Assembly: GCA_011605725.1 (NCBI GenBank)
Contig: JAAOZP010000003.1
Span: 26,876 to 90,875, forward strand
DNA length: 64,000 bases
From: Nitrososphaerota archaeon
Lineage (GTDB): Archaea > Thermoproteota > EX4484-205 > JAAOZP01
Reading direction: 5' to 3'
Shown here: positions 1,814-63,612 of the stretch, in pieces
Position numbering within the stretch: position 1 is the stretch's first letter
Layout: every line of letters begins with the position of its first letter
Position numbers and translations under genes: made by a program
Notes under the pieces: model-generated
The model's input: only the letters and a program-made list of their open reading frames with translations
Told to the model about the DNA's origin: nothing
The model's database searches: none

Positions 1814-1825
1814 TAGCGCGCGCTA
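1814..1825. repeat. Perfect 12-bp palindrome TAGCGCGCGCTA (consensus copy of the boundary motif)
   Basis: Read directly; intergenic between convergent genes. Confidence 0.95.
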
Positions 1826-1899
1826 CCTCATTCCTTAGCTCGCTTTTTAAACGTCTAACAGGCTTAAGCGTCAACTGTGCCACGCTCTTTAAGAGTGAG

Positions 1900-2856
1900 T
1901 CAGACCTCCGCTGCCGCTAACAGGGTCCACCTTCCAATCTGCTCGTCTCCCTGGCGGTCAAGTGGTAGTTGAGGCTCGATGATCACCCATCTCCCCTTGG
2001 CCAATCCGAATCTCGTCAGGTCTGGGAAGCTCCAATACCTGTATCCGGGCAATTCCTCAAGATGGACAAGCACCATGTAGTGACGGGCTCCAGTCGCATT
2101 CTTGAACGATCCCACGGCTGAGTCGATTCCAACAGCCTCGAAAAGCGAGGCGACGAGAATCGTATAATCGTCGCAGTCGCCAGACCTCAACCCCAGGGTC
2201 TCAACAGGAGCCCGGAAAACATCGTTAACCTCATACTCGTAGTGAACATACTTGCGTGTGAAGTTCAGTATTTTTCCAATCTTGACAACCGGCGGGTCGG
2301 ACTCGCTTACGCCGATTATGAGAAGCACCTCGTTGATTTTACTTCTCGCAATATCATAGCTCCGCCTTCCAACGATTCTTTCAAACTCAGCCTCCACATC
2401 CGGCAAGTATGGGTTGCCAAGATCGTGCTGCGCAAGCCTCGCCGCGAAGACAACCTGATCCTTAGCCGGGTTTGCACTCTCCCTTGTACCGTCCAACCCT
2501 TTAATCAGCCTCACCGCATCATAATACGATTGAAGACTGTTTCCAATCCTTAAAACAGCCTCAACACCGAGTTCCCTCCTGAGAACACTGTAATTCCCCA
2601 TCAGAGACATGTAGGCTGAGCTTAGGTCGGAGAAGCTTGTGTAAAGCGACTGATAATTCTCCTCCATCTTCCGGTAGGAGGATGAGAGCTCAAAATAATT
2701 AGTCAGAAAGAGAGCGAACAGAATATTCTCCAAAACGATGAAAACAATCAAGCCTATTAGAACCAGTCTTCCAGCCTTATGCTCCGGAGGCGGCGGGGGG
2801 AATGTAAAAACAATGTTTCTACTCATCTTTCCAACACCCCGTTTCTCAACAGTCAT
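1900..2856 (-). CDS. Membrane-anchored transglutaminase-like cysteine protease
   Basis: N-terminal TM helix and coiled coil; P-ETL...GDCDDY catalytic Cys motif and HYMVLV His. Confidence 0.85.
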   Translation of the reverse strand: MTVEKRGVGKMSRNIVFTFPPPPPEHKAGRLVLIGLIVFIVLENILFALFLTNYFELSSSYRKMEENYQSLYTSFSDLSSAYMSLMGNYSVLRRELGVEAVLRIGNSLQSYYDAVRLIKGLDGTRESANPAKDQVVFAARLAQHDLGNPYLPDVEAEFERIVGRRSYDIARSKINEVLLIIGVSESDPPVVKIGKILNFTRKYVHYEYEVNDVFRAPVETLGLRSGDCDDYTILVASLFEAVGIDSAVGSFKNATGARHYMVLVHLEELPGYRYWSFPDLTRFGLAKGRWVIIEPQLPLDRQGDEQIGRWTLLAAAEV

Positions 2857-2958
2857 GCGTTAAAAAATCTTTCACACAGAACTGTGATTCCCCTCAGGCA
2901 GGAGACGCGCGTAAGCCTTTAAAACGTGTTGGACACGTTAAAACATTACTGCCGATCC

Positions 2959-3786
2959 TTAGAAAAACATTAGAAAAACCTGTGCAGCCCATAGTGGAAC
3001 AGCCACAGCAATCCAAGCAGTAATGCTCCACGACAGGATTTTCCTACCGTCTAAACCTCCCAACGGAATCATGTTGAATGCTGCAAGCCACAGGTTCACT
3101 TGGAAGCCCACGGTACCGATTAGGCCAGTCAGACCGTTTAATCCACTCAGGAAGAGGAAAAGAATAGCCCAGGCAACGTTAGACAAGGGGCCTGCTAAAG
3201 ACACTAGCCCAATCCTTCTTCTTTCAGACTTCTGGGGCAATTCGTAGACACTTACACGTGGAGCCACGTATGTCGCGCCCGGGGCGGCGAAGATAAAAGA
3301 CCCGGCTGTAAGCAGGGATGAGAATAAGGCAATGGCGAGCCCCATGGGCCATAGTCTGAATTCAGACCAGTAGCCGTATCTCTGGGCAGTAAACTTGTGC
3401 GCCAACTCGTGCGACACGAACCCTGTTCCGACAACGATCAGGTAGATGACGAGAATAAGCGGCAATATTGAGCTGGGTTTGAGAACATATTTAATGGAGA
3501 AACATGTTGTTAAAACAACCCACGCGGCCAGCAGATGCGTAACCTCAGTCCAACTGGTGATTCTCGATATTCTAAGCCTCCGACTAGGCGGCGGAGGAGT
3601 CTCACTGTATATGATAGGGGTCTCGCTGCATGTTTGCCTCTGCATCCTCACCAGGTTCAGCATTCGGCAATTATGCGATTCAGGAAGCCTATGGCGGGAG
3701 CAGAAAGTACCCTTACAGTAGGAACAGGTGAAAGGCAGAATTAGCTCCTCGCCGCAAACCTCGCACTTCACCATTTGAAACACCAC
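2959..3786 (-). CDS. AN1-type zinc finger fused to M50 (site-2) intramembrane metalloprotease
   Basis: CEVC..PFTCSYCKGTFCSRHRLPESHNC; HELAH; LAGPLSN; FNMIPLGGLDG. Confidence 0.9.
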   Translation of the reverse strand: MVFQMVKCEVCGEELILPFTCSYCKGTFCSRHRLPESHNCRMLNLVRMQRQTCSETPIIYSETPPPPSRRLRISRITSWTEVTHLLAAWVVLTTCFSIKYVLKPSSILPLILVIYLIVVGTGFVSHELAHKFTAQRYGYWSEFRLWPMGLAIALFSSLLTAGSFIFAAPGATYVAPRVSVYELPQKSERRRIGLVSLAGPLSNVAWAILFLFLSGLNGLTGLIGTVGFQVNLWLAAFNMIPLGGLDGRKILSWSITAWIAVAVPLWAAQVFLMFF

Positions 3787-4017
3787 CCTAATATGCTAAT
3801 TCTATGCTCCCTAAGCCGTAATGCTGGAGCGCAGCTGCCGAGACAATAGGCTGTTGCCTTCACACTGTTCAAGTTCCACCAACCATGGATAAAGCAGTAC
3901 TAAAAGCTTGCTGTTAACAGTAGGCGGCTTAAAAAACCGTTTAAGCAGAAGCATAGGGGTGTAGGCATACGGCGGAATATTGCTCTTTAACTATCATAAG
4001 GAATTATAAACAGGGTT

Positions 4018-4561: not shown

Positions 4562-4598
4562 AGATTTTTATACCTGAAACAGTTAATAATGATGAGGA

Positions 4599-4919: not shown

Positions 4920-5077
4920 AAAAACCTTATCCAAGTCTCACGCATCGTCATCACATCGTGTATAAGGAAATTGGTTTCCCTCTTTAAAGAACCATAGCGC
5001 CTAGTGAAACCAGTGGGTTCAACCAGAAAGCTATGTATCCAAAAAGATTAAAATAGGAATACTTTTTACATGTAAGT

Positions 5078-5330: not shown

Positions 5331-5722
5331 GCTTGTCTTCGACGTAGGCCCACTCCTCCTCTATTTCGCTGAAGATAATCGTGTCAAGGTTTTTTCGAAG
5401 AGGTCATGGCGAGTAAGGCAGAGGGCTATACGTGTGAAATCAACATTGCAGAACTCTATTGTAAAACGTGTGAGAAACTCGGTCGAGAAGCTGCTGAAGT
5501 TAGGAACGCATCCATCAGACACTCAAAATCACAATATTGCCGTTGGATGAAAGGCTTACGCACGTTGCAGGAGGCTTGAAGTGTATTCACAGGGGGAAGC
5601 TTTCTCTGGCAGACGCCTATATCTTGGCGGCTGCAAAAATGCTTGGAGGAACTCTGATAACAACAGATTCCCGGCTTGCAGAGCTTAAAACAGTACCAGC
5701 CAGATTGATTGAAATCCCTTAG
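5317..5722 (+). pseudogene. PIN-domain (VapC-like) toxin, frameshifted
   Basis: LVFDVGPLLLYF / EINIAELY / LSLADAYILAAAKMLGGTLITTD lie in different frames, with breaks at T and A runs. Confidence 0.8.
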
Positions 5723-5916
5723 CATATCGTACGCCACCTTGAGCGTTTTCAGAATCGCGTCTAAATATTCTAGCATGCCCACCAGTTTCATCTGAAGCAT
5801 TGTTTAAAGGCAGCTGGAGCGCCTGCTTTTAGGAAGACAAGGCGCGTTCTGGGCAATTCTGAGAAGAGTAGGATTAAAAAGGTTGATGTGCGGGTGCTCC
5901 CAGCATTACACGCCAT

Positions 5917-6606
5917 CTAGATCTTTGAAAGAATGTTTGAATATTTCTCCATCCTCATAACTTTCCCCTCGGGCTGTATAAGCCAGGTCATCCAGCAGAG
6001 CTCTATCGGCCTGTATCCGCATGCTAATGCAACCTTCTCGGCTTCCCTGATGAACTCCATGTCTTTCTCCACGGGTTTTAAGCCGGCTTTAACCAGAATC
6101 CTGTTAACCACTCTTTTAACAATCTTATCCGGCATGACTGTGTCAATGCCTCCCATCATTCTCAAGTATTGGAAGGTTATTAAGCCAACACCTTTAATTC
6201 TCCCGACCGGGTCCCTCCTCCAGTTTTCAAGACTAGCTTTCCCAGCCCAGGTTCTAAGAGCCTCCCTATCATTATTGCTCAATGTTGAAAGATAGGAGGC
6301 AATCTTCCTAGCAACACTCCAAGACCTTTTATTCCTCCATACTGTCCTCAGCCTCCTCACATCAGCCCCGGCAAGGTCTTTCAAACTCCTTATCTCACCG
6401 TTTTCAACAAACCTCTTGTTGAACTCCTCAACCTTAGGGACGACTGCAGTGAAATAGTTTAAGCCTATTGAGGTGAAGGCAGCGTCAACAATCATCAGGA
6501 CAACACTCCCACCCCACCTCTCAGTCTTAAGACACCTGTCGCAATGCTCCTTAAGACCCGGAACACTCCGCATATAACTGTCAACCACTTCCTTCAACGA
6601 AAGCAT
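5917..6606 (-). CDS. HhH-motif protein, DNA glycosylase superfamily-like
   Basis: GRIKGVGLITFQYLRMMGGIDTVMPD resembles HhH-GPD (HhH followed by Asp). Confidence 0.6.
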   Translation of the reverse strand: MLSLKEVVDSYMRSVPGLKEHCDRCLKTERWGGSVVLMIVDAAFTSIGLNYFTAVVPKVEEFNKRFVENGEIRSLKDLAGADVRRLRTVWRNKRSWSVARKIASYLSTLSNNDREALRTWAGKASLENWRRDPVGRIKGVGLITFQYLRMMGGIDTVMPDKIVKRVVNRILVKAGLKPVEKDMEFIREAEKVALACGYRPIELCWMTWLIQPEGKVMRMEKYSNILSKI

Positions 6607-6666
6607 ATTACCTCTGAGAAGGACGATAGTTTACTTATTTTTATTTATAATCCTGAACCTTAGCGT

Positions 6667-7212
6667 ATGGCAAAATTTTTAAACGAGGGTTTAAGCTTCG
6701 ACTCGATGGAAATACTTTTCGTCTGTGAAGGAAACATATTTAGGAGCACTATGGCAGAGGCTTTGTTCAACAGGATTATCGATGATGCAGGATATAGCAA
6801 GGAGATACGTGTCTCGTCCGCCGGAACCATAGCTGTTGACGGAAGCCCTGCCTCACCCTATGCGGTTTTCGTAATGGGGAAAAGAGGGATTAGCTTGGAG
6901 AGTTTCAGGGCTAGGCGGTTAACACCAGAGCTTGTTCAGAGGGCAGACCTAATATTGACGATGGAGGAGAAGCATAGGCGCTACGTGCTTGAGCTCGTCC
7001 CAGAGGCTGTGGGAAAGACACATACGTTGAAAACTTTCTGCGGGCAGGAGGGCGAGATATACGACCTCAGGGGAGGAGGGTTTGAAGGGGCGGAGAAGAT
7101 TGCTCAGAAGATTGAGGATTGCATCAAGGCGAGTCTTCCACGAATAATTGATAGGGTGGAAAAAGCAAAGGATGTTAACCGAATATTGAGAAAGGTCTCG
7201 TGTGTTCAGTAG
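6667..7212 (+). CDS. Low-molecular-weight protein tyrosine/arginine phosphatase (LMW-PTP/ArsC family); start may be 6706
   Basis: ILFVCEGNIFRS (CX5R), SSAGT, ADLILTMEEKH. Confidence 0.9.
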   Translation: MAKFLNEGLSFDSMEILFVCEGNIFRSTMAEALFNRIIDDAGYSKEIRVSSAGTIAVDGSPASPYAVFVMGKRGISLESFRARRLTPELVQRADLILTMEEKHRRYVLELVPEAVGKTHTLKTFCGQEGEIYDLRGGGFEGAEKIAQKIEDCIKASLPRIIDRVEKAKDVNRILRKVSCVQ

Positions 7213-7238
7213 AGCATTATCCGGAAGGATTTGATTGT

Positions 7239-7781: not shown

Positions 7782-7840
7782 GAGTAAAGCCGTTGGTGAA
7801 CTGCTGCTTAGTTATTTAAGCCTTTCAAAATTAACCACTA

Positions 7841-7907
7841 CAGCGCGCGCTATCCTATGCTCTAATAAGCATGCTCGCTAAGCTTTTTAAACAACCAGTG
7901 CACGCTA
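7841..7907. repeat. Cluster of boundary palindromes (CAGCGCGCGCTA, AGCATGCTCGCTA, CAGTGCACGCTA)
   Basis: Three copies of decreasing fidelity in one intergenic spacer. Confidence 0.8.
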
Positions 7908-9009: not shown

Positions 9010-9019
9010 TAGCGCGCTA
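9010..9019. repeat. Perfect palindrome TAGCGCGCTA
   Basis: Starts 5 nt after the stop of 7920..9005; degenerate copy AAGCGCGTGCTT at 9132-9143. Confidence 0.9.
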
Positions 9020-9144: not shown

Positions 9145-10425
9145 TTATTCTCTGCGCGTAATCAACCACTTCCATAGTGGAGTGAATTTAATTTTTTCAT
9201 TTTCAATTTCTAATTCATCATCATAACCCCAAGTTATTACGAGTAAATCTTTGCATCTGAGTTCTACACAAGCCTTAAGCAACGCCCTTATCTTGCGTCT
9301 CTCGATTTCATCTCTACCATTAGCATAAGTAACCTGGATGAGTTGTTTAATTTTTGGGCCCTCCTTCAAGACGAAATCCACCTCATTTTGTTGACGATCC
9401 TTCCAGTAAAAGATTTCAAGCAAAGGATTATCATTTATCTTCCTCATCTCTTCTATGAATACGGTGTTCTCCATCAGCCTTCCAAAATCCTCTGAAAACC
9501 GGACTACCTTTGAAATCCCCGTATCGCATATGTAAACCTTCCTTGGCCAAGATTCCCTCAGGGAGATTTTTTCCGAGTATTTTTTAACAAAGAAAACGGC
9601 CAGCGTATCCTGCAATTTTTCAACGTAATCGTAGACGGTGTTTTTACCCATTCTTATACCGTTCGACTTAAGCAGGTTTACAAGCCTATTTACGCTAAAC
9701 TCGTGCGAGAAACTTTGAAGTACTTGAGAAAAAACGAACTTTGCCACTTCAACGCTTTTAAGTTCATGTCTTTCTACAAAGTCTTTAAAGAAAATCATGT
9801 CCTGATACTCCTTCAAAATCTTCTCCTTATCCTCCTTCAACACGATTTCCGGAAAGCTGCCGAATTCAAGGAATTCTCTCAACAAGTTCCTTATTTTTGC
9901 TTTCTCCAGCCCGCTTAGGACTTCCTCCAACTCAACTCCTTTGGCTTTTAGAAATTCTCTGAACGAAAAGCCGAACAAAAGATAGGTTAAAGACCTCCCC
10001 CTCAGTTGAGTAGCCACTTCCCTGCTTAAGAGCTTGGAGGAGGAACCAGTAGCAAAAATTCTATAACCCCCTCTATTCAAGAGGGTTCTTACCATGGTTT
10101 CCCATTTCTCTACCCTTTGAACCTCGTCTAGAAAGATATCCGTTGGAACCCTGCCAGTTGTTTCGGTGAAGAGGTTTATCACATCCAGCACCTCATCAAA
10201 CTTAACGTCTATCAAAGCGGAGTCTTCAAAATCTAGGTAGAGACAGCTTTCCTTATTCCCCCTCATCAGCTGGTAGAAATAGAAGGTTTTACCAGCCCTC
10301 CGAGGCCCTACTATTGAAATAACTTTGTCTTTTACCGGCTTTACGGAGAGCTCTCTTTCCACTAGGGGTGGGAGATTTTTCGTGTACCAGTCTTCGATGT
10401 AGCTTCTCACCCTTGCTTCTTTCAT
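9145..10425 (-). CDS. AAA+ ATPase, COG1373 type (AAA_14 plus DUF4143 REase-like C-terminus)
   Basis: GPRRAGKT Walker A, FLDEVQ Walker B, TGSSS, KVYICDTG, EVDFVL...IQV. Confidence 0.92.
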   Translation of the reverse strand: MKEARVRSYIEDWYTKNLPPLVERELSVKPVKDKVISIVGPRRAGKTFYFYQLMRGNKESCLYLDFEDSALIDVKFDEVLDVINLFTETTGRVPTDIFLDEVQRVEKWETMVRTLLNRGGYRIFATGSSSKLLSREVATQLRGRSLTYLLFGFSFREFLKAKGVELEEVLSGLEKAKIRNLLREFLEFGSFPEIVLKEDKEKILKEYQDMIFFKDFVERHELKSVEVAKFVFSQVLQSFSHEFSVNRLVNLLKSNGIRMGKNTVYDYVEKLQDTLAVFFVKKYSEKISLRESWPRKVYICDTGISKVVRFSEDFGRLMENTVFIEEMRKINDNPLLEIFYWKDRQQNEVDFVLKEGPKIKQLIQVTYANGRDEIERRKIRALLKACVELRCKDLLVITWGYDDELEIENEKIKFTPLWKWLITRRE

Positions 10426-10703
10426 AATGTAATAGTTGTTGAGACAATTGCTTATAAAATTTTCTCAGTCATAGAGAAATACGATATTAGCATCTGAAAG
10501 CCCGCAATATGGTTAAAAGGCCACTCTTAAACCAGAAATCGAATTTTGAGGAAAAGATAGGCAGAATCAGGGTAGCGCGCGATTTTCTCTTAAATCCGAG
10601 AGACATGATGTGGCAAATCGACTTAACCGAAAAGTTCTTTTTGTTCACCTGAAACTACTTGAACAGCTTGGAGTGTCGTCGTTACTTGCTTTAGCGCGCT
10701 CTA

Positions 10704-11416: not shown

Positions 11417-11609
11417 AAGCCTATTTACAATGCTTCCAAGATATAAAAAGCTTGAGTCTTAAGAAGCTTGTGTACACTATAAGTGCTGGCGCTATTCGAA
11501 ACGGGTCCAGAATAATGGAGAAATGATTCTTGGCATCTCGCTGGCTGAAGGGTCGTTCGGAATACTGCTAGAAATGATCATCTTCACTACAAAACCAGAA
11601 AAACATGCT

Positions 11610-12517
11610 TCAAACATTGTTTGCTATTTCCCTTAGCTTTTCTCCAACAACTTTGAGGAAATCTTCAAAATCCCTTTGAGGAAGCTCTATTAATAGCCTT
11701 CTTTCGAAAGGGTCTTCAAGAAATCCCTCTACTATTTCCAATCCTTTTCTATTCCTCTCAAGGTTGCTTCTATACTTCCTGTAATAGAGCGATGCTCTTA
11801 CTTTCTCAAGAATTTCTTTAGCTAAGTCCTCTATTTTGTAACCGTGTTTTGAGAGCATGAATAAATCATAGAAGTCTCTGAGTTTTTGAGCTCTCCTCGT
11901 CAGTATAGCTCTTACTTTTTCACACAGGATTTCTCTTTCGTCGTAAGCCATTATTTGAAGAGGCTTATAGAAGTCTATGAATTCTTCGAAATATGCTTTT
12001 TCATCTGTTGATAATTTAGCCCCGTCCAACAAGGTTTTCACAGTGATTTTCTTTATCGGGAAAAGCAATTTCTCTATGAAGTTTACTTGAATCTTTATCA
12101 GCTCCGAGTTCTTCCAGAGCTTGAACGTCACCATTCTACCTCCACCACCAAACTCGATGAAATTCCTGTTTTTAAGCTCGGCTTCAAACCTAAGGCCTAA
12201 TTTCTCTGAAACTGTTTTCAAAAAAGAGGCGAAATCCTTTATCTCAGCTAAGAGCTTTCTCCTCAACTTTTTCTCCCCTAAACCGGCCCACATTTCCTGC
12301 TCTCTCCATGTAAAGTCTAGGTCAACGCTAAACCTGTAGTAGCCGAAGTAACATTTAGTTAAACAGCTACCTCCCTTGAAAAGGTATTTATTGAAGAGGG
12401 GTGAGGAGCAGAAATCTTTAAGCACTCTATGCAGTATTATGTCTGATTCTATTAAGCTCACATCCTTGATACCCGATTTTCAATTATGAATGAAACAAAC
12501 TCAGATAAGCCGGGCAT
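11610..12517 (-). CDS. AbiEii-family nucleotidyltransferase toxin (type IV TA); probable start 12517 with a slip near 12477-12480
   Basis: FKGGSCL, YRFSVDLDFT, EKVRAILTR, RDFYDL; upstream MPGLSEFVSFIIE/KSGIKDVSLIESD overlaps the antitoxin stop. Confidence 0.88.
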
Positions 12518-13340: not shown

Positions 13341-13352
13341 TAGCTCGCGCTA
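13341..13352. repeat. Boundary palindrome TAGCTCGCGCTA (further copies near 13235 and 13318)
   Basis: One mismatch to consensus; intergenic. Confidence 0.8.
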
Positions 13353-14726: not shown

Positions 14727-14804
14727 TAGCACGCGCTGTAGGCGCGCGCGGCTCTTCAGGGTCTTTCTATCGGTGAGGATGCTGATTTAACCTAGCGTGC
14801 GCTC
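14727..14804. repeat. Cluster of three boundary palindromes
   Basis: TAGCACGCGCTG 14727, TAGGCGCGCGCGGC 14739, TAGCGTGCGCTC 14793. Confidence 0.85.
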
Positions 14805-15544: not shown

Positions 15545-16138
15545 TCACGTGTTTAAAGCTCGCGCGCTTGAAACCAGTTTCTCAAGTTTCTTGAAATCTT
15601 CCTCCATCTTCCTCCTGATGCTTGGGAACCTCATTCCCGCAGCCGGGTGGAAAGTTGGAAAACAGGTTACTTGCCCCTTCCTCATAAGCTTCCCATGGCT
15701 TTTCGATATGGAGACTTTTTCGTTGGGAAACAATGCTTTAAGGGCAACATTTCCAAGAACCACGATTAACCTTGGCTTGATGATTTCGATTTGCTCGAGG
15801 AAAAACGGTTTGCAGGCTTCAACCTCGTCTTTCACAGGCGGCCTGTTTTTAGGCGTGTGACACTTAACTACTCCAGTTATAAAGACTTCACTCCTTTCTA
15901 GGCCTATTTGGCTCAGAAGCTTTTCAAAAAATTTCCCAGACATTCCTACGAATGGTTTTCCTTGAGCATCCTCGTTTCTCCCAGGATTCTGCCCAAGAAA
16001 CATTATCTTCGCGTTAGAAGGGCCTTCTCCAGGAACAGCGTTAACCCTTATCCTCCAAAGCCTGCATCTTCTACACTCCTTTATTCTTTTTTCAAGCTTA
16101 AGCAGTTTCCTATGCTTCTCCATTCTTAATCTTCCCAA
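15545..16138 (-). CDS. udg: Uracil-DNA glycosylase family 4 ([4Fe-4S])
   Basis: CRRCRL, VPGEG, GQNPG, PFVG, VKC, HPAA; last codons (ARA) run through a GCGCGC motif. Confidence 0.93.
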   Translation of the reverse strand: MGRLRMEKHRKLLKLEKRIKECRRCRLWRIRVNAVPGEGPSNAKIMFLGQNPGRNEDAQGKPFVGMSGKFFEKLLSQIGLERSEVFITGVVKCHTPKNRPPVKDEVEACKPFFLEQIEIIKPRLIVVLGNVALKALFPNEKVSISKSHGKLMRKGQVTCFPTFHPAAGMRFPSIRRKMEEDFKKLEKLVSSARALNT

Positions 16139-16333
16139 TGTTTTTCAAGCCTCCTCCGCCTCTTATTACTTTCGCATTTTTCAAGCTGAGAAGGGCTTTC
16201 ACCAGCGCTGCTTCATACAAATCCTTTTTCAAATCGAAAGCGATTCATCCTCGCGCTTGCCCGTAAGCCCTGTTGGCAGGTAATCTTTTTAAATCATGCG
16301 CGTAACCAAGGGGTTTCAGCCTGATGAGTAAGC

Positions 16334-17593
16334 ATGGATGCGAGCAGCGTGCAGCAGACCGAGCTTAAGCCTTCCCTAGGTCTGTTTGACGCCACTGCCA
16401 TCAGCATTGGCGCGATTATTGGAGCAGGCATTTTCATCGTTACAGGTATTGCTGCGGGCTTAGCCGGTTCAGCCCTAGTGGTTTCAATGCTCATAGCAGC
16501 AGTAATCGCGTTGTTAACTGCTTTAAGCATAGCGGAGCTCACGGCCTGGCAACCCTTAGAGGGAAGCATCTATGAATATGCTTACCGATTAATCTCGCCG
16601 TTCGCGGGTTTTCTAGCAGGATGGATATGGGTTTTGTCAAACACTTTTGCGGGAGCAGCTGTCTCACTGGGCTTCGCGTATTACCTTGCGGCGCTAGCTC
16701 CAGTTCTGCCTACTAATCTTATTGCAGCAATAGTCTGCCTGGGTTTCACGACGCTGAACTTCATCGGGATCCGTCAGTCAGCTTTCACCAACAATATTCT
16801 CGTCGCTGCAAAACTGCTCATACTGGTGTTCTTCATCGTAACCGGTTTCTGCTTCATAAGGGTGGAGAACTTCTCGCGGTTTGAGCCTTTTAAAGCCGGG
16901 GTACTCTATGGAGCATTCTACATTTTCTTCGCCTACGGCGGCTTCGCCAGAGTAGCCGTTGTAGCGGAGGAGGTTAGAAACGCTAGGAAAAATGTTCCAA
17001 GAGCAATACTTCTATCCCTAGTAATATCCACGCTGGTTTACATTCTCGTTGGAACCGTAGCCGTCGGGCTTGCAGGAGCCTCAGGTCTTTCAAGCTCGAA
17101 ATCGCCGTTGACGGATGCAATAAGCGTGACAGGCAGCACGGCCGCGGTCTACATAGTTTCCGCCGGAGGGCTTGTCGCAACCGCGAGTGTCCTGCTCACA
17201 TCAATCCTAGGCGTGTCTCGCATGGTTTATGCGATGGCGAGGAGAAGAGACCTGCCTCAAGCCATGAGCAAGCTGCACGCTAGATTCGGCACACCATATT
17301 ACTCCATCTGGATAATTGGTGTTTTAATGACGGTTCTCGCTCTATTCATAGACCTCAGCAGGATTATCGCCATAAGCACTTTCGCACTGCTTTTCTACTA
17401 TGCTCTGGCAAACATGTCTGCGTTAAGATTGAGAATTGAGAAACGGCTTTACCCCAGTGTTATCCCAGTCCTAGGCTTAGCCACCTGCCTAATCCTAATG
17501 GTTTTTATCCCGCTTGAAGCATGGATAATGGGTTCTGCAGGGTTAGCAGCAGGCGTAGCCTTCCACTGGATGAAAAGACGCTTCTCGACATAG
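16334..17593 (+). CDS. APC-family amino acid permease
   Basis: IGAIIGAGIF, FFAYGGF, AEEVRNARKNVPRAI; multiple TM helices. Confidence 0.95.
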   Translation: MDASSVQQTELKPSLGLFDATAISIGAIIGAGIFIVTGIAAGLAGSALVVSMLIAAVIALLTALSIAELTAWQPLEGSIYEYAYRLISPFAGFLAGWIWVLSNTFAGAAVSLGFAYYLAALAPVLPTNLIAAIVCLGFTTLNFIGIRQSAFTNNILVAAKLLILVFFIVTGFCFIRVENFSRFEPFKAGVLYGAFYIFFAYGGFARVAVVAEEVRNARKNVPRAILLSLVISTLVYILVGTVAVGLAGASGLSSSKSPLTDAISVTGSTAAVYIVSAGGLVATASVLLTSILGVSRMVYAMARRRDLPQAMSKLHARFGTPYYSIWIIGVLMTVLALFIDLSRIIAISTFALLFYYALANMSALRLRIEKRLYPSVIPVLGLATCLILMVFIPLEAWIMGSAGLAAGVAFHWMKRRFST

Positions 17594-17700
17594 TTGGGGA
17601 ATGCAGTCTTTCGCCGACACTAGCCCGTATTCATCACTGCCACTATGCTTTCCCTCTCAGGTTTAAAGACCGATGAAGCTAACCCTACAATCATAGTGGG

Positions 17701-17770
17701 TAGGCGCGCTAAAGGTTGTTGTCAAGTGAAGAAGTGTTATCGAGGAAAAGCAGCGCGTTAGCGCGCGCGT
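17701..17770. repeat. Cluster of boundary palindromes including fused copies
   Basis: TAGGCGCGCTA 17701; CAGCGCGTTAGCGCGCGCGT 17751-17770. Confidence 0.85.
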
Positions 17771-17863
17771 TGAGACTGTAAAGCCTAGGGAGAAACTGTT
17801 AATAGTAATGAGTGAAATCATCGAGGTCATAACCTAGAAGATTCTTCAAGCGTGCGAGGTTAG
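17768..17863 (+). repeat. About 95-bp direct repeat, copy 1
   Basis: CGTTGAGACTGTAAAGCCTAGGGAGAAACTGTTAATAGTAATGAGTGAAATCATCGAGGTCATAACCTA...TTCTTCAAGCG(T/C)GCGAGGTTAG, near-identical to 19641-19734. Confidence 0.95.
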
Positions 17864-18052
17864 GGAGAACAGGGTTATCTGACCCTATGGGTTCGAGTTC
17901 GATGTTACCTGCTGCCTGCCGAAGGAAGCATGGGAGAGTGGAGGCTATGCGTGCTAGAGTTGAATAATCTGCTTCAAAGAGCGCGCTCTTTATGATTGAG
18001 AGCAAATCTCAGCATAGTCAATGAATATTTCCATCTTTAAAACATAGTTGGA

Positions 18053-19348
18053 TCATGATTCGAGTAGCCATTTCCACAAGGGTAGGAACCTAATCCTCCT
18101 GCCATCATGCTTCTCCACTCCTTCATAGTCCCAAGTGATCACGGTTAGGTCGCTACAGTCCAGCTCCTTAGAAGCCTTCACTAGCGCGCTTATTTCCCTC
18201 TCCTTCGTATCGAAATCCTCTATATTGTAGCATACTTGTATTAATTGCTTAATCTTTCCACCGCTCTTTATAATGAAGTCCACCTCCTTATTATTGGAGC
18301 TGAAATAGAACAAGTTTTCGTTTGGAGTGAAACCTTTCTTCAAGAGTTCTGAGAAAACCAGGTTCTCCATAAGCCTGCTCGTGCTTTCAACTCCATTGAC
18401 GATGAGCAGGCCATTATCCACCAAGTATATCTTTGGAATAGTCTGCTCCACTTCCTTATAGGACCTAGAATACTTCCTTAAAGTGCATAAAACTAACGAG
18501 TCTGAAAAATACTCAACATAGTTGTAAAGAGTGTTCTTACTAACCTTCATCCCCAAGGATTTAATATAGTTATAAAACTTATGGATTGAAAAATACGTGG
18601 ACGACACTAAACTCTTAACCATTAATCTAAGGACTCTTATGTTCTTAACCTTGAACCTCTCTATTATGTCCCTATAGATAGTAACCTCAAATATTTCCTT
18701 CAAGATCTTTTCCCTTTCATTTTCGAATAGTACTACTTCAGGATAGCTTCCCCTCATGTATTTCTGAAGGAGATTCAGAAGCATAGCTTTCTTTAAAGAG
18801 GAAAGATATTTTTCCGCTTCGAAGCCCTTTGCTCTCAAGAACTCTTTGAAGTTAAAAGGATAAATGTAGTAGGGAAGAGTCCTTCCCCTTAGACTTGTCG
18901 CGACCTCCATGGATAGAAGCTTGGAGGAAGACCCGCTGACATACACTTGAATTCTCTCGCTATCTACAACGCTGCGCACAAACCTTTCCCAATAAGGGAC
19001 GTTCTGAACCTCGTCTAGGAAAAGGTAAACCTTTTGCCTCTTATTTTCGGGGTAAATCTCGTAAAAAATATTGAGCATGCTCCTTAAATCCTCTATGGTG
19101 CAGCCGATTAGCAAGTCGCTTTCAAGGTTAACGTAAAGTATTCTGCTTTTATCAATATTGTTACGCAGTAATTCCCCTATAACCTGAAACATGAAGAACG
19201 TTTTACCTGCTCTCCTCGGCCCAATTATAGATATGGCTCTTCTTATCGGAAGATCAGCTTCAATCCTAAGGTCTCTTTTCACAAGTTTAGGTAACTCGGA
19301 TTCTTGGAAATCTTTTATCATTCTTATCCAGGTCTCTCGCGTTACCAT
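18053..19348 (-). CDS. AAA+ ATPase, COG1373 type (AAA_14 plus DUF4143), paralog of 9145..10425
   Basis: GPRRAGKT, FLDEVQ, SGSSSKLLS, KIYLVDNG, EVDFII...IQV. Confidence 0.92.
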   Translation of the reverse strand: MVTRETWIRMIKDFQESELPKLVKRDLRIEADLPIRRAISIIGPRRAGKTFFMFQVIGELLRNNIDKSRILYVNLESDLLIGCTIEDLRSMLNIFYEIYPENKRQKVYLFLDEVQNVPYWERFVRSVVDSERIQVYVSGSSSKLLSMEVATSLRGRTLPYYIYPFNFKEFLRAKGFEAEKYLSSLKKAMLLNLLQKYMRGSYPEVVLFENEREKILKEIFEVTIYRDIIERFKVKNIRVLRLMVKSLVSSTYFSIHKFYNYIKSLGMKVSKNTLYNYVEYFSDSLVLCTLRKYSRSYKEVEQTIPKIYLVDNGLLIVNGVESTSRLMENLVFSELLKKGFTPNENLFYFSSNNKEVDFIIKSGGKIKQLIQVCYNIEDFDTKEREISALVKASKELDCSDLTVITWDYEGVEKHDGRRIRFLPLWKWLLES

Positions 19349-19502: not shown

Positions 19503-19602
19503 TAGCGCGCTAGTATCCTTCTGGGAGAATTTCCTTCACCCTATCTATGTTCCAGCCGTCTCTTTTCATCAACACAAAATCACAACCCCTTGTAGCGCGC
19601 TA
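19503..19602. repeat. Two perfect TAGCGCGCTA palindromes bracketing an 80-bp insert
   Basis: 19503-19512 and 19593-19602. Confidence 0.92.
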
Positions 19603-29722: not shown

Positions 29723-29736
29723 CAGCGCGCGCGCTA
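29723..29736. repeat. Boundary palindrome with (GC)5 core, CAGCGCGCGCGCTA
   Basis: Read directly. Confidence 0.9.
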
Positions 29737-42022: not shown

Positions 42023-42034
42023 TAGCGTGCGCTA
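42023..42034. repeat. Boundary palindrome TAGCGTGCGCTA
   Basis: One transition from consensus; further copies near 41925 and 42110. Confidence 0.85.
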
Positions 42035-42153
42035 AAAACTGGTTTAAACTTTTTAAATACGGCTAATTCTTATATATTGCAACTGGAAAGTGTTTTATTA
42101 ATAAGCGTGGCACGCGCTAAACTTATATTGCCTGATTGGTTTAAAATATTGGA

Positions 42154-43077
42154 ATGAGGGAAGAACGGCTGTATGATCCGGTGGGGGAATGGCTTATCAG
42201 GGAGAAGGGTTGTCAGCGGGATAAATATTCTCAAGGTTATTTGAAGGACGCGCAGATCGGAAATTTTAGATTCGACGTACTTGGTATAAGGTATGAGGTA
42301 GTACATGAATGCATAAATCATCTGGATTTTCACGGCTATATCGTCGAGGTGAAGGGTGATGAAACCGGTCTGGATGAACTCATCGGTAAAGTAATGATGG
42401 TTAAGGAAGGTATTAAAGGTCACTCTATAATAGAGCACTTTAGTGGATTGGATACCGTTGAATTATACATAGCCTACCCGACAGAACAGGTGAAAACCGA
42501 AATACTCAGAATATGTGAAAGAGAGGGAATCGGCATCCTAAGGCTTCAAATCGTTGACGAGAAAACCGTGCACGTATATAACGTAGGCGTAAAACCTGAA
42601 CTGATTTATATCTGTGGAATATCGCATGAAGCTCAAAAATCCCCTGGAAACTTTGAAAGTGCTATGAATGAATTCGGTTATCTGAGGCAGATGTTTCAGA
42701 GGCCCTCGGACATGTTTGAAGACCTCATTAGGCCAAGTAAAGAAGAATACAACGCTCAACTGAAACTAAAAGAACTTCAAGGCTATGTTAGGAACAAGGA
42801 GAGCGAAGAGGCGCTGGATTTCCTCATCGAAAAAATCCAAGAGAAACTTCCACAAGTCAATATCACAAGTGCTGGAGGAAAGATAGCGTTCATACTACAT
42901 GGAACCGAGTTGCTTAACATCGTCCCTACTACTAAGTATTTTTACGTGCAGTTAGGCGAAGGAGAAAGATATAGAATTCTATCTAGAAATGAGATAATAG
43001 GATTCGAAGGTAGTGTTGATAATCTGATAGACTCTGTAATAATACCATACATAAATGATAAGATTAAAAAGAGATAA
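42154..43077 (+). CDS. PD-(D/E)XK restriction-endonuclease-fold protein
   Basis: EERLY...RFDVLG...IVEVKG...LYIAYP...GIGIL. Confidence 0.7.
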   Translation: MREERLYDPVGEWLIREKGCQRDKYSQGYLKDAQIGNFRFDVLGIRYEVVHECINHLDFHGYIVEVKGDETGLDELIGKVMMVKEGIKGHSIIEHFSGLDTVELYIAYPTEQVKTEILRICEREGIGILRLQIVDEKTVHVYNVGVKPELIYICGISHEAQKSPGNFESAMNEFGYLRQMFQRPSDMFEDLIRPSKEEYNAQLKLKELQGYVRNKESEEALDFLIEKIQEKLPQVNITSAGGKIAFILHGTELLNIVPTTKYFYVQLGEGERYRILSRNEIIGFEGSVDNLIDSVIIPYINDKIKKR

Positions 43078-43189
43078 AAATTAGGACTCATAGTAGTGTG
43101 CACTAATAGAATAAGCAAGAGGAAAATTTACCCTAAAAATGGAAGGCCTAGTAGTTTAGGAACCAACATGACTATAAAGTGTTCGAAGT

Positions 43190-43816
43190 TCAGATAGGAC
43201 TAAGCTTCATGAATAACTCTCTGTGCGATTTTATGACATTTTTAATTTCGTTTGCCAGCTTCTTTTCTTTTCCCTCTTTAAAGCATAACCACTGCCCATA
43301 TAGCCAAAGGTACTCATCCATCTGTTTGTAGGTTATTGACAAACCAGATTCTGATATTAACCTATCTATGCCGGATTTGAATTCACGATATCCCACTAGT
43401 TTTTCTCCTAACAGCTTGCTTAACGCATACTTTGCAAAAGAGTCATATATAGGGAATTTATGTGGTTGGTGAAAGTGGCAATATTTGCTCGTAAAGACTA
43501 ACCCCAGTCTTTTCCCTCCTTGGACGTAAAGCTTAGAGATGTCCTCAACTATATCAACCGGGTCCTCTTTTTCCAACCTGTCATCTATGTTAGCGTGAAC
43601 AAGCACCTCAGCAACCTTCTGCACATCCATTTTAAGGTTGCAATTGTACAACTTATCCAAAAGAACAACTTTATACGCTACATCCCGCACATTATCATTT
43701 TTATTGTACGTTTTAAATTCACGGTAAAGCAATTCATCTATCCGTCCCCAAGTTAGTACCTTATCAAGTATCTGCTTTGCCACGCTAAAAATTTCGCTCG
43801 TGAGCATCTTTATCAT
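43190..43816 (-). CDS. Hypothetical HhH/glycosylase-like helical protein (related to 25169..25843)
   Basis: VFTSKYCHFHQPHKFPIYDS; YKQMDEYLW. Confidence 0.55.
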   Translation of the reverse strand: MIKMLTSEIFSVAKQILDKVLTWGRIDELLYREFKTYNKNDNVRDVAYKVVLLDKLYNCNLKMDVQKVAEVLVHANIDDRLEKEDPVDIVEDISKLYVQGGKRLGLVFTSKYCHFHQPHKFPIYDSFAKYALSKLLGEKLVGYREFKSGIDRLISESGLSITYKQMDEYLWLYGQWLCFKEGKEKKLANEIKNVIKSHRELFMKLSPI

Positions 43817-43889
43817 TACAACTTCGCCAATCCTAATAAGTTTTTCGCTGGTAGGGCACGCTAAAGACGTTTATGTTAGAGTATTGTTT

Positions 43890-44165
43890 CTACTCTTCAA
43901 CTATGAATCCTTCTTCAATCAGGATTCTTCTGCAATCCTTGCAGAGCGACTTCAACCATTTGGCAAGTAGTCTTCTCTCCTGTTCCGCAGACTTTATTTT
44001 AACGCTGAAGATCCTGTCGAACCTCCTCTGCACTCTTTGCACACGAGGTCATACTCTGAGGAGCGCATTCCTTGAGATAGAAGGTAGGGATAATTTAAGC
44101 GTTTGTTGTCAAAAACAACAACATGTTGCACCCAGCGTCATAAGCCTTTTTAACACGGTTTGAAT
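43890..44165 (-). pseudogene. Degraded 3' gene remnant between two palindromes
   Basis: ...FDRIFSVKIKSAEQERRLLAKWLKSLCKDCRRILIEEGFIVEE*; flanked by TAGGGCACGCTA 43852 and TAGCACGCGCTT 44166. Confidence 0.35.
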
Positions 44166-44535
44166 TAGCACGCGCTTCTCCTCCTAGCTTAAGGAAGGTT
44201 AGCGTAGCTAAACTTAAGAGTGTGACAAAAGGTTCAAAATTTTGGTAGACGTGGTTAAAGATAAGAATACATTGCGTTTATGCAGATTTGCTTAATTTCA
44301 AAAATGAAAAAGAAGCTTGAAACAGTGTTTAAGGAAGCGCGCGCGCTCTGACGCTCTAAAATAGCAATGAGTGGTAAATGGATGTAATCGCAGCGTGCTT
44401 TCGCTGACTTTAAAAATCAGGCTGTTCACGACCCTTTTTCAGAGACCTCTGATAGGCTTGAATTGGATAACGGAAGTACGGTATGATTTATTCTTAAGGC
44501 AAAGCTTAAAAGTAGTATGTAAGGCTTATAGTTGG

Positions 44536-44763
44536 ATGAGAAAAATTATTCAGGTGAGGGTTTACAAGGGGGAGAAATACTACGTTGCTGAGTGTGTTGA
44601 CCTGCCTGTTGTCAGCCAGGGGAAAACGCTGGACGAGGCTGTGGAGAACATAAGGGAAGCGATAAGCCTCCATCTTGAAGGAGAGGATTTAAGCGAATGG
44701 GACATACTTCCAGATTTTTCCATACTGATTAGCATGGAAGTCCCTCCTCATGTCGAGGCTTAA
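44536..44763 (+). CDS. hicB: HicB-family antitoxin
   Basis: YYVAECVDLPVVSQGKTLDEAVENIREAISLHLE. Confidence 0.9.
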   Translation: MRKIIQVRVYKGEKYYVAECVDLPVVSQGKTLDEAVENIREAISLHLEGEDLSEWDILPDFSILISMEVPPHVEA

Positions 44764-44992
44764 AGTATTAAGCGGGAAAGACGTAGTTAAAATACTTTCA
44801 AGGTTTGGATTCATACCAGTGTCTCAAAAAGGAAGCCATGTGAAGCTAAGGAGAACCCTGCCTAGCGGGACGATACAGTCTTTAACAATTCCTCTACACG
44901 AAGAGTTAGACAAGGGAACTTTAAAGGCAATCTATAGGCAAGCCTTAAGATTCATCCCTGAAGAGGAGTTGAAGCCTTATTTTTACGATTAA
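44750..44992 (+). CDS. hicA: HicA-family toxin
   Basis: SGKDVVKIL..FGF...QKGSHVKL...TIPLH...GTLKAI. Confidence 0.92.
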   Translation: MSRLKVLSGKDVVKILSRFGFIPVSQKGSHVKLRRTLPSGTIQSLTIPLHEELDKGTLKAIYRQALRFIPEEELKPYFYD

Positions 44993-45144
44993 TTATGAAG
45001 CGTTGAAATAGGTCTTCGCTTAAATCAACAAAAAAGGAGAGCTTCAAAACACGATTCTAGAATCGGGCTACGAGTTACGAGCCTCAGAAAACTATTCCTA
45101 AGGAGGAAGCTTAGCGACTAAGGTTCTCAGCTGCAGCAACCATG

Positions 45145-45156
45145 TAGTGCGCGCTA
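45145..45156. repeat. Boundary palindrome TAGTGCGCGCTA
   Basis: Between the HicAB module and the toxin locus. Confidence 0.85.
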
Positions 45157-45350
45157 GTATAGTTGTTGTGTGAAGAATAACTCGTGGAATGCCTTTAGCG
45201 CACGTGAAGTTTTTAAACGGGTTTTCTAAGACTGCTGCATTCTTTTGCATGCTTACTTTCACTCAACCCTCTCCCTCAAGCGTTTACTTTCCTAAGATTC
45301 CTGCATGGTTGGAAAACCTTTATCTTAAGCCTATGCACACTATATATGGA

Positions 45351-54011: not shown

Positions 54012-54023
54012 AAGCGCGCGCTA
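54012..54023. repeat. Boundary palindrome AAGCGCGCGCTA
   Basis: Between the giant gene and the 473-aa gene. Confidence 0.85.
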
Positions 54024-56325: not shown

Positions 56326-56487
56326 ATGGATGAGGAGCGATTTTTAAGCGAGTTAGCCGATTATATGAATAAGCGGTATGAGGTTAAGCTGAGAACAGCT
56401 TCTAAAGAGGAATTCACTTTCTACAGATACACGGGGAATCTAGCGCGCGCTAAGCCTAAAATGGAGAAGAGAACAAGGAAAGTATGA
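56326..56487 (+). pseudogene. 5' gene fragment cut by a perfect palindrome
   Basis: RBS GAGGAG then MDEERFLSELADYMNKRYEVKL...; frame enters TAGCGCGCGCTA at 56441. Confidence 0.5.
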
Positions 56488-56757
56488 ACTTACAGGTGTG
56501 GAATAAGAATAGTGCGCGCTAGCGCGCGTAACCGATGTCTAACGCTAAAACCGGCATCCCTATAGCCATATACCTTAAGGACTTTGAGACGTATAGCGGA
56601 ACATCAATGCGCGCGCTAAACAATGATTGAAGATAAAAAACATTGTGTTTACGTAATTGCTTAATGACGTGGAGACCTGCACTAAGTATTACGAAAAATA
56701 TAAGAAATATCGTGAGGAGGATAGGGTTAGGATTAGGCTGTGGTTCAAGCGCGCGCC
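56441..56757. repeat. Stack of four to five boundary palindromes with unique spacers
   Basis: TAGCGCGCGCTA 56441; TAGTGCGCGCTAGCGCGCGTA 56510-56530; TGCGCGCGCTA 56608; AAGCGCGCGCC 56747. Confidence 0.9.
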
Positions 56758-62500: not shown

Positions 62501-63496
62501 CACACGCCCATCTCCGGCTGTAGCCACTAGGTTCTGTGGTTCGGTTGGTATTGTAGGTGAGGATTGAACTATCAGGGTAACTTGCTGTTGCCTCGTTATC
62601 CCACCACCTGTTCCAGTTACCGTCAACGTGTAGGTTTGAGCCGGCGTTGAACTTGTTGTGGATACGGTCAGGGTTGAAGTGAAGGTTGGCGAGCCTGAGG
62701 AGGGGTTAAAACTGTAGCTCATGGTGCTGTGCTGCCCGGAAAGGCTCAGCGATACTGTCTGCGCAGTGCCGCTGACTAATGAAACAGTAACAGAGTATGT
62801 TGTGGACTGTCCAGCCGTAACTGTCCTAGAAGATGGTGAAACAGAGATGCTGAAGTCGAAAGATTGTATAGCTCGGAAATTCGCTGTTACGGTTCCCGGT
62901 CCAACAGTCCAATAAGTTGGATTACCTGTTGGAGAATCTACACTTACGGAACCGGTTGTTGACCAGCTAACGAACTCGTATCCGGCCGCAGGATTTGCAC
63001 GCAATCTGGAGGAAACCTTGTTAATTGTGCCGCTTTGCCCATTTGAGTATGTTACTGTATAAGGAGGATTTGCACCATAATATTCTACTGAAATTGTGCC
63101 ACCGGCAGGGGGAGAGGTATAAAACGTCACTATAGGACCGAACGAAGCTCCTACATAGCCTTTCCCATTGACTGTCAAAGTTGTAGAAGAACTGTAAGTA
63201 TCAGAAACAGGCGTATACGATGTAGTATACCATCTTAAGAATCCATAGCCTGATGGCGCAATAGCCTGGATGGAATGAGTTCCTGCCGAAAGTGTAATGT
63301 TTATATCATTAAAATTTGGAAAGTAATAGCTTACACCATCTACAACTATTCTTGCCCCAACAGTATCCGTGCCTAGTGTGACGCTATAGCTAGTAGCATA
63401 AACGCGTAAATTTGGATAGAAAACTTGGTTAAGCAATAATAACATGAAAAGTAATGGAGCGATTCTTTTCAGAGAATTATTTCCATACACTTTCAT
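59558..63496 (-). CDS. Large cell-surface protein: signal peptide, Ig-like repeats, fibronectin type III, PEGA-like, central hydrophobic hairpin, C-terminal TM anchor and cytoplasmic DUF4129-like domain
   Basis: PTEPQNLVATAGDGRVTLSWSAP..DGGSAITNYRIYR..YYQVSAVNSVGEG (FN3); two DFSIS(V/A)SP repeats; PWWWPYLPYAIVIASVVIISMVGYVV. Confidence 0.88.
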   Translation of the reverse strand: MKVYGNNSLKRIAPLLFMLLLLNQVFYPNLRVYATSYSVTLGTDTVGARIVVDGVSYYFPNFNDINITLSAGTHSIQAIAPSGYGFLRWYTTSYTPVSDTYSSSTTLTVNGKGYVGASFGPIVTFYTSPPAGGTISVEYYGANPPYTVTYSNGQSGTINKVSSRLRANPAAGYEFVSWSTTGSVSVDSPTGNPTYWTVGPGTVTANFRAIQSFDFSISVSPSSRTVTAGQSTTYSVTVSLVSGTAQTVSLSLSGQHSTMSYSFNPSSGSPTFTSTLTVSTTSSTPAQTYTLTVTGTGGGITRQQQVTLIVQSSPTIPTEPQNLVATAGDGRVTLSWSAPRSDGGSAITNYRIYRRTSSTSQSLIATVGNVLSYTDTSVTNGVTYYYQVSAVNSVGEGPKSNEASATPTSTPQPDFSISASPNSLSLTLPSSGLTSATSTVRVTSINGFSSQVSLSASWIGTTPSGVTCTFSKNTVTPPSNGQDSSILTITASSSASTGSFTLRVTGTSGSLTRTVDIAVTISPPQQDMGILSIDTTPVKGEVFVNGQSWGIAPQSRTVNVGTYIVSFGSVSGYTTPSSQTVSVTKGQITTVTGVYKPIITYTVDIIVKGPPTTGVDLYVDGSFKGSCGVGSTSLKFEEGTTHKIRLNAPEMEGYIKLALQLRGIDLRLVDDTKEIVIDGPLKIFIVYFNEKTLLLLVEEIRGKIVREFTTPETYLKIANMIREGINEYPIIIDIPAGLIGELGFPVKLAFKIEQIAAICAEAGENTREKAIEDINRFAGSSIISGITTIGCLLVTGMAGVATIPAGGAGAIPVVIACGVGGPVIGFLTNKLQPSITESLGSLSNRFTSGIFLALMSALQKAKSVLGIQGACNITITVIDPRGRIAGAPLEEKSTVKIPGAIYNGMSSHPQIIVIPNPLEGEYKIFVVGRESGDFSLQVLTVEGGLISSNKTYSDIIHVGEKKEFGLNAKISQQENFSTNFAPILYSVKPAFPLSMIIGEKLLISINATDPEGIDQINIALLDSINNWHNKTANYDSGVYWAEFDTQGFPIGNCKTHIFIIDREKFVSSHVYNLQILGKLVLNGKASRSEVISGEGLTVTLALTDQYGNPVKFANVNVSLAGRVYSARYSGGEQYIAVISDTRGLEGSYVIKARASNPSYLPAEYELPLIIRPWWWPYLPYAIVIASVVIISMVGYVVHRSRRKEEKIIIGSEDLLKVLNDANNHLNKGDYAEAVRYSAETLRSKMLEKLGLSRSTENEDLIKSVAALRKDIDLEKLKYVLRKGEECTYARYKPSKEEAEKVLKYSEELLSKL

Positions 63497-63590
63497 TTTT
63501 TCCCGTTTTCCAGATATTATCCTACGTACTATTTAAATTTTGCTTAAAAATTAGTTTTAGAAAAAAGCCTATGTAAGCTTCATAATTAAT

Positions 63591-63612
63591 GAGCGCGCGC
63601 GCTAGCGCGCTA
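63591..63612. repeat. Fused double palindrome GAGCGCGCGCGCTAGCGCGCTA
   Basis: Its last A is the A of ATG 63612. Confidence 0.9.

Follow-up and report, generated by a model that had tools for sequence, protein, structure and literature searches.

Telomerase can insert interstitial telomeric repeats at repaired chromosome breaks, and such insertions have been found through comparison with empty orthologous loci (PMC8537989). In prokaryotes, the protein-primed defence reverse transcriptase DRT10 acts with a non-coding RNA, produces free complementary DNA and serves in antiphage defence with a SLATT effector (10.1101/2025.10.16.682844). Among polymerases that belong to the AEP (archaeo-eukaryotic primase) superfamily, the reports on Saccharolobus PriSL describe microhomology end joining (PMC12019639) and the activity called PADT (PMC3333859), an in vivo precedent for end joining by an AEP, and the N-terminal AEP domain of PolpTN2 without the PriL-like part reverse-transcribes RNA in vitro (PMC3973330). 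Cyanobacterial HIP1 is a fixed palindrome that occurs genome-wide, with up to more than one copy per gene (PMC5861425, PMC4390886). Here, we analysed the palindrome TA(GC)nTA, which recurs in a 64,000-nt stretch (the window) of a Nitrososphaerota archaeon genome (GCA_011605725.1, referred to as G000; contig C5, JAAOZP010000003.1, positions 26,876-90,875).

The initial annotation of the window had placed this palindrome at most boundaries between gene modules and had proposed that it is the recombination site or junction scar of a cassette insertion and shuffling process. Our analysis points to an undescribed class of ribonucleoprotein (RNP), in which an AEP would naturally function as an RNA-dependent DNA polymerase on a template RNA of its own and would add self-complementary tails to broken ends in a manner similar to telomerase. 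The ensuing Ku-independent joining would delete, invert and capture DNA in Brockarchaeota and Bathyarchaeia and could be reprogrammed by 6-10 nt of RNA. On the sequence comparisons described below, we regard this reading as probable.

Occurrence and placement of the palindrome

G000 is 2.23 Mb in size and 93% complete, and the runs that contain a stretch of it are hot-spring metagenomes. Its genus relatives belong to Candidatus Brockarchaeota, and our genus sample consists of 17 genomes (G000-G016). The window is an accessory region that contains toxin-antitoxin pairs and AbiEii, HerA-type, radical SAM, GmrSD, DUF499-DUF1156-SNF2 and MoxR-DUF58 genes. A (GC)n-type word was found at, or a few nucleotides from, all 31 positions previously listed. 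Perfect TA(GC)nTA is present at only six of them (1814, 9010, 19503, 19593, 56441 and 63603); most of the remaining copies are one-sided or mismatched at one position, and the word is weak at about four positions (25012, 31568, 43094 and 55561). Under a third-order Markov model, the forms with n=3, 4 and 5 are all enriched in G000: TA(GC)4TA was found 28 times versus 0.02 expected, A(GC)4T 88 times versus 0.9, A(GC)5T 20 times versus 0.04 and TA(GC)3TA 17 times versus 0.5. The n=2 form is not enriched in this genome (12 versus 12.9 expected). The exact 12-mer is present in 9 of the 17 genus genomes and only once in 44 other genomes of our phylum sample, and was not found in any paper of the literature searched, most subscription papers being outside the reach of that search.

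The association with module boundaries was borne out, as was the truncation of genes at the motif. Among the 27 motif clusters in the window, 24 are intergenic or at a gene edge, and two of the other three lie in short, doubtful open reading frames (ORFs). When the genome was divided into classes with our own simple gene caller, the motif density per 100 kb was 42 in variable intergenic, 11 in core intergenic, 1.6 in variable coding and 0.09 in core coding DNA; the motif thus avoids coding DNA and is densest in variable intergenic DNA. It has no preferred orientation relative to genes, similar to the background, and its distances to starts and stops are scattered from 0 to >1 kb. A transcription-factor site or terminator, for which the initial annotation had expected a fixed distance from promoters or stops, was therefore ruled out. 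Sequence information is absent beyond the 12 bp of the motif, and its outermost base is the most variable one. A library or assembly artefact was also ruled out, because copies with shared substitutions are present at orthologous places in a second genome and the motif was also found in contigs of four other runs.

Scars as new sequence at deletion joints

We rebuilt the genome of the relative G002 to 2.05 Mb (about 85% identity to G000) and aligned the two genomes. As predicted, breakpoints fall on the motif: 136 of the 703 alignment ends are located within 5 bp of it in either genome, compared with 10.5 +- 3 under a local-shift null. However, only eight of these 136 breakpoints have the motif in both genomes. 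Where the flanks are collinear, about 30 copies stand for segments of 17 bp to 5.6 kb, and the other genome is motif-free at both ends of the segment; the exceptions are a few short pure insertions and about three cases with the motif at one parental end. The flanks connected by thirteen copies are unlinked or inverted in G002. Two deletions run between older copies. Existing copies are occasionally reused as later deletion endpoints, as at window position 10573, but this is a secondary effect; in a strain of run X1, the copy at 10573 is joined to that at 14744.

Contigs from four other studies, many of which are 99% identical to the window, contain recent events of this type, namely fresh deletions, filled with (GC)n, at sites that are motif-free in the window. 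In strains of three studies, the segment 11561..12448 (joint 11560-12449), which is motif-free at both ends in the window, has been replaced by a 6-nt (CG)3 filler, removing most of an AbiEii-family gene. Since this gene is intact in the window and cut in the strains, the deletion with its filler is the derived state. The segment 5466..7188 (joint 5465-7189), again with motif-free ends in the window, is lost in a strain of run X4 with an 11-nt (GC)n filler; 15657..19194 (joint 15656-19195) is replaced by A(GC)4T in a strain of run X3; and 9508-10388 is a further strain deletion with (GC)n filler. Of the six joints with filler in the strain contigs, four have (GC)n. The motif is almost certainly de novo junction filler, newly written at deletion joints. 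Thus, among the origins named in the initial annotation, a junction scar from filler synthesis during end joining agrees with the replacements and with the strain joints, and we refer to the copies as scars.

The start of the filler is not random with respect to the native DNA. At 52 of 64 resolved junctions, the native end carries the base that precedes the motif. Filler beginning with AGCGC is preceded by a native T in 20 of 20 cases, and a native T is found in 26 of the 35 joins that read TAGCG versus about 30% by chance (p about 8e-8). Filler is usually primed by 1-3 matching bases. The native-T matches argue that a 3' end was paired to a fixed template and extended, and the symmetric product with its variable n suggests that two tails annealed through their GC repeats. 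Scars exceeding two single template copies also exist; slippage during fill-in could lengthen them too.

A stand-alone primase-like protein as candidate enzyme

Motif-bearing genomes of the genus encode, beside PriS, a second AEP of about 270 aa that is located behind a second radA gene (radA2); in G000, dinB lies upstream, and the true PriS is encoded on C11. The second AEP, whole or as a remnant, was found in seven of the nine motif-bearing and none of the eight motif-free genomes. When matches to the RNA element described below are included, the union covers all nine motif-bearing and again none of the motif-free genomes, in line with the suggestion that the motif might co-occur with a primase-polymerase family. 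The DxD and SGxxGxH motifs and the third Asp are invariant, which places the protein in the AEP superfamily. Its structure model (pLDDT 84.5) matches PriS and LigD-Pol structures, indicating a PriS/LigD-Pol fold, while the family forms a branch separate from both (support 85/73). An identity as the replicative PriS was rejected on the basis of this separate branch and of scores of 37-56 bits versus a PriS family cut-off of 143.5. Neither RVT_1 matches nor Ku were found in the 17 genus genomes; a reverse transcriptase as the filler source was rejected, as none was found in the genus. PADLOC returned no match.

Homologues of the AEP are also present in soil and peat Bathyarchaeia, where radA does not adjoin. 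Five AEP-bearing Bathyarchaeia genomes contain 11-106 copies of A(GC)4T versus 1-5 of a control word. Most of the 251 Bathyarchaeia genomes analysed lack long GC runs; genomes rich in such runs represent five of the 10 strong AEP carriers versus 19 of the 241 others, kin not being independent in this count. Remnants of the AEP locus are common, as are remnants cut at scars, and in four Bathyarchaeia loci the AEP remnant ends exactly on a GC run.

Some other primase loci deserve mention. A 440-aa AEP subfamily (L203-L205 in G242, G181 and G218; protein P0086) has an extra C-terminal domain, and the linker of the P0086 type is unusually conserved at the DNA level and looks self-complementary, possibly representing another embedded RNA element. 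Our RNA model R1 has no match at these loci, and the subfamily occurs in four of nine genomes rich in a TCGCG-type word and also in two without it. Canonical operons of LigD-Pol, Ku and ligase are found at L206-L209 in Bathyarchaeia. Several AEP loci or remnants (L156 on C1 of G008, L233, L239 and L241) are near tyrosine integrase genes, a hint of travel on mobile elements.

A conserved, putative RNA element with a proposed internal template

The alignment of AEP 3' ends revealed a conserved element of 90-135 nt that lies over and behind the stop codon. It consists of a 5' strand, the conserved word GAUGA, a short slot and a 3' hairpin; pairing between the loop of this hairpin and the 5' strand forms a pseudoknot. 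The slot, GCGCUA, is the exact complement of the tail TAGCGC. In the Bathyarchaeia alignment, 95% of the cells are paired and 11 of the 22 pairs show double-sided changes; the element score is 0.43 versus 0.15 for shuffled alignments and collapses on sliding. In Brockarchaeota, 99% are paired, and the helix between loop and 5' strand is preserved by other letters in six further loci. Rfam contains no match for the element. Our model of it has matches in eight of the nine motif-bearing and none of the eight motif-free genus genomes, and the element follows the AEP family in about 25 loci of two classes with varying neighbours. Covariation and strand polarity together suggest that it is a structured RNA with a short internal template. 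The polarity of the scars fits a sense transcript as the template, with TA on the outside; the inverse word was found five times. At L222, L225, L227 and L230 (G007, G002, G009 and G016), the element takes a second form, in which the 5' half differs and the slot GCACGCU lies inside a hairpin; no AEP was detected in the flanks fetched at these four loci.

Variant slots were read first, and scar words were counted afterwards. In G062, where the slot is GCGAUCA, we found 105 TGATCGATC words versus 4-25 in four other genomes, one such run next to an RNA copy having been seen before counting. In G061, with the slot GCGCGUA, there are 32 TTACGCGCGC words versus 2-6 elsewhere; here the local flavour of the scars had been seen beforehand. 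The slot UAGCUAGCUA at L236 is accompanied by 11 (AGCT)n words in 13 kb versus 0-1 elsewhere. At L239 and L241, where the slots end in GCGA, TCGCGCG is the top local word, and L240 (slot CGCGUA) has TACGCGC, on small counts. The only RNA-positive genome among 34 controls free of GC scars, G142, contains 192 (ATGC)n words versus 0-3 in the others, although no independent reading of its slot was possible. The slot GCACGCU, present in some Brockarchaeota copies, would account for the frequent TAGCGTGC variant, with deamination as an alternative. A pattern search for further templates returned mostly chance matches. As predicted, the scar sequence appears to follow the template where the slot differs, reading TACGCG, (GATC)n, (AGCT)n or TCGCG. 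The (GATC)n scars at L177 (G062) and L192 resemble the HIP1 core.

Proposed mechanism and alternative explanations

The template-scar correspondence and the structure of the junctions make it likely that the palindrome originates from RNA-templated tailing of broken ends by an AEP-RNA complex. A double-strand break would arise and its ends would be trimmed. The RNP, composed of the AEP and its RNA, would then form 1-3 base pairs between the slot 5'-GCGCUA-3' and a DNA 3' end; for this step, the sequence shows the microhomology at junctions, the structure of the RNA, its linkage to the gene and the match of template and scar, and we infer the complex and its catalysis. Copying of the 6-8 nt template onto the end would produce TAGCGC, and frequent realignment would add further GC, which could account for scars longer than two single copies would give. 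The self-complementary tails would anneal in variable register, and after filling and ligation TA(GC)3-6TA would stand where DNA was lost; here the product is visible in the sequence and the route is presumptive. Because any two tailed ends fit, deletions, inversions, translocations and fragment capture could all result from this one route. Joins that destroy needed genes would be purged, so that the surviving scars would mark module borders in accessory regions.

Several observations weigh against this proposal. Longer pairing into the A-run beside the template was not supported (p 0.055, with the shuffle being a lenient null). Half of the 10 strong AEP carriers in Bathyarchaeia hold only 0-3 of the 11-mers tested, six scar-rich Bathyarchaeia metagenome-assembled genomes (MAGs; G126, G143, G263, G266, G276 and G300) have no detected AEP or RNA, and another scar-rich MAG, G146, has a weak RNA match only. 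The motif-bearing genomes sampled in the genus form one clade, and their nine-of-nine co-occurrence is therefore close to a single event. In G000, the AEP is not linked to the intact RNA and carries Lys in place of a near-invariant Arg. For G009 and G010, in neither of which an AEP was detected, the scar words predicted from their orphan RNA copies were not borne out, and at L178 and L184 the top local word differs from the predicted one. The mismatches between AEP or RNA and scars may be due to loss of the locus, to contigs left unbinned or to slots with other words.

The same template element might be used by another catalyst, such as PriSL, DinB or another host polymerase, with the AEP being an accessory protein, or the element might act in cis as single-stranded DNA or as an mRNA 3' end. 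The scar-rich MAGs in which only the housekeeping PriS was detected, the dinB gene upstream in G000 and the overlap of the element with the region of the AEP stop codon are all compatible with this idea, and the reports on Saccharolobus PriSL describe both microhomology end joining and terminal transfer (PMC12019639, PMC3333859). However, the element tracks the AEP family through changing neighbours in two classes, PriS is present in every genome whereas scars are not, and orphan RNAs without the AEP show no matching scars; another catalyst is therefore unlikely. Alternatively, the AEP, working from the slot or de novo, could synthesize a short self-complementary oligonucleotide, which would be captured between broken ends as a preformed patch. 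AEPs do prime de novo, and a patch would give the same symmetric product and the same 1-nt end matches, but end extension is in better agreement with the variable n (3-6), the one-sided joins at internal template positions and the fused copies, making a patch highly improbable.

Causality might also be reversed, with the slot word being itself a scar that was set into the element by an unrelated non-templated or protein-templated addition. Some RNA copies are indeed cut by scars, the G142 match includes a full (ATGC)n run and the L236 slot is a full palindrome. In all intact copies, however, the slot has a fixed position between the GAUGA word and the 3' hairpin; it is usually a half-palindrome with a single polarity, and the same slot variant is present in two separate copies of G062. 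We find such a reversal very difficult to credit. Even less credence can be given to the symmetric site of an integron-like site-specific recombinase or transposase, as favoured in the initial annotation, or to a transposon footprint. The strong breakpoint association, the two scar-to-scar deletions and the about three one-sided ones would fit such a site, but the word is absent at both parental segment ends in the about 30 replacements and from the window at the strain deletions, few breakpoints carry it in both genomes, breakpoints occur mid-gene, the length varies, flanks are unconserved and target duplication is not the rule. Cut-and-ligate at GCGC and hairpin-opening footprints, two further options of that annotation, are excluded because the parental flanks lack the word. 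A footprint of an IS630/Tc1 transposon with TA duplication was rejected, given that TA is missing from both sides of the parental ends and that losses reach 5.6 kb, and a target-duplicating integrase (Cas1/casposon-like) was rejected because the word does not flank the segments kept in the relative.

Comparison with described systems

RNA-templated tailing by the AEP would resemble telomerase in its short internal RNA template beside a pseudoknot-type fold, in the alignment of a few bases to a DNA 3' end and in insertions at repaired breaks that are detected against empty orthologous loci. The differences are that the candidate catalyst is an AEP rather than a TERT-type reverse transcriptase, that the archaeal chromosome is circular and the scars are 8-16 bp long, and that the template encodes a self-complementary word, so that the tails would join ends instead of capping them. 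With DRT10, it would share a prokaryotic polymerase with an adjacent non-coding RNA, a variable template loop that dictates a tandem repeat, and possibly realignment, for which 2-3 nt suffices; in contrast to DRT10, its product becomes part of the chromosome, and it has no linked reverse transcriptase or effector. The AEP-RNA system would fall outside both, because its catalyst is not a reverse transcriptase.

PriSL and PADT offer an AEP fold that acts at double-strand breaks with microhomology and leaves indels, but this enzyme is the replicative heterodimer without a dedicated RNA, and the accessible portions of the reports mention no fixed filler word. The in vitro activity of the PolpTN2 AEP domain provides a precedent for reverse transcription by an AEP. 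PolpTN2 is, however, a plasmid primase that shows the activity only in truncation and has no cognate RNA. Non-homologous end joining by Ku and LigD likewise brings an AEP polymerase to broken ends, whereas Ku was not found in the genus and the Ku-linked LigD-Pol of Bathyarchaeia forms a separate clade. To our knowledge, LigD adds no defined word. Similar to HIP1, the scar word is a short over-represented palindrome; unlike HIP1, it varies in n (3-6), is concentrated in intergenic DNA (11-42 per 100 kb versus 0.09-1.6 in coding DNA) and arises at deletion joints. Integron arrays also carry toxin-antitoxin and defence cargo in mixed modules, but the 60-140-nt hairpin site of attC is absent here, and the parental alleles contain no site.

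In the literature searched, we found neither such scars nor an AEP with a cognate template RNA reported, and no published description of a telomerase-like repair route with an AEP; telomerase, DRT10 and PolpTN2 are the nearest. If the proposal is correct, telomerase-like chemistry would have been invented a second time, independently, on a fold other than that of reverse transcriptases; reverse transcription by AEPs would gain a biological role; and there would be an answer, for these lineages, to how archaea without Ku mend double-strand breaks. Since each event leaves a readable tag, genomes could be used to count and polarise the history of deletion and capture. An enzyme of 270 aa that, with a 90-nt RNA, adds a sticky tail of choice to DNA ends would also be a possible tool.

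Scars and other features along the window

Table 1. Scars in the window and related loci of G000 (window positions unless a contig is given; remarks on collinearity and synteny refer to the relative G002)
Feature	Location	Remarks
Scar TA(GC)4TA	1814..1825	Replaces 5,297 bp kept in G002; neither end with motif
One-sided scar	7839..7852	Synteny resumes 21 bp to the right
Perfect n=3 scar	9010..9019	Collinear, similar length; older, probably shared
Scar from scar-to-scar deletion	10573..10584	Two copies 203 bp apart in G002
Scar	10692..10703	At synteny break
AbiEii-family gene	11610-12461	Minus strand
Aged scar	13341..13352	Collinear, equal length
Three-scar cluster (14727, 14742, 14793)	14727..14804	Breaks between modules on separate G002 contigs
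One-sided scar	17759..17770	Intergenic
Two perfect n=3 scars	19503..19602	First is n=4 in X2 and X3 strains
n=5 scar	29723..29736	Intergenic
Scar series (42023, 42108, 43852, 44166, 44335, 45145)	42023..45156	Between small modules
One-sided n=4 scar	54012..54023	After 2,354-aa ORF
Scar cluster with fused pair at 56510	56441..56756	
Fused double scar (n=5 + n=3)	63591..63612	Directly before OGG/AGOG gene fragment
dinB-radA2-AEP	C7:376,692-379,796	Outside window; RNA element decayed
Intact RNA element	C12:18,838-18,930	Outside window; behind broken AEP

The segment lost at 1814 (C43:30,786-36,080 in G002) contains the radA2-AEP-HEPN-MNT operon of G002; therefore, the system appears to have removed its own copy from this place. 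Outside the window, a scar at C10:30,931 of G000 has a 5-6 bp direct duplication and lies inside a tRNA-like, intron-containing gene, the isotype call of which is unreliable; the gene in G002 is scar-free. The scar-rich genomes of the genus are 2.0-2.3 Mb in size versus 0.6-1.8 Mb for the motif-free ones, a difference that is confounded with clade and completeness.

A pair of genes encoding proteins of 546 and 2,354 aa occupies positions 45189-53890 of the window. A second copy, 77% identical, is located at C20:21,534-26,954 of G000, and several copies of the pair are present in relatives. The 546-aa protein has no Pfam match, and none is on record for the 2,354-aa protein. In addition, an element of ~33 bp is present at 45250-45292, in the 5' region of the ORF starting at 45189, as well as at C7:377,984-378,014, upstream of radA2, and at C20:26,920-26,954. 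This element is repeated in several relatives and is possibly a shared regulatory box.

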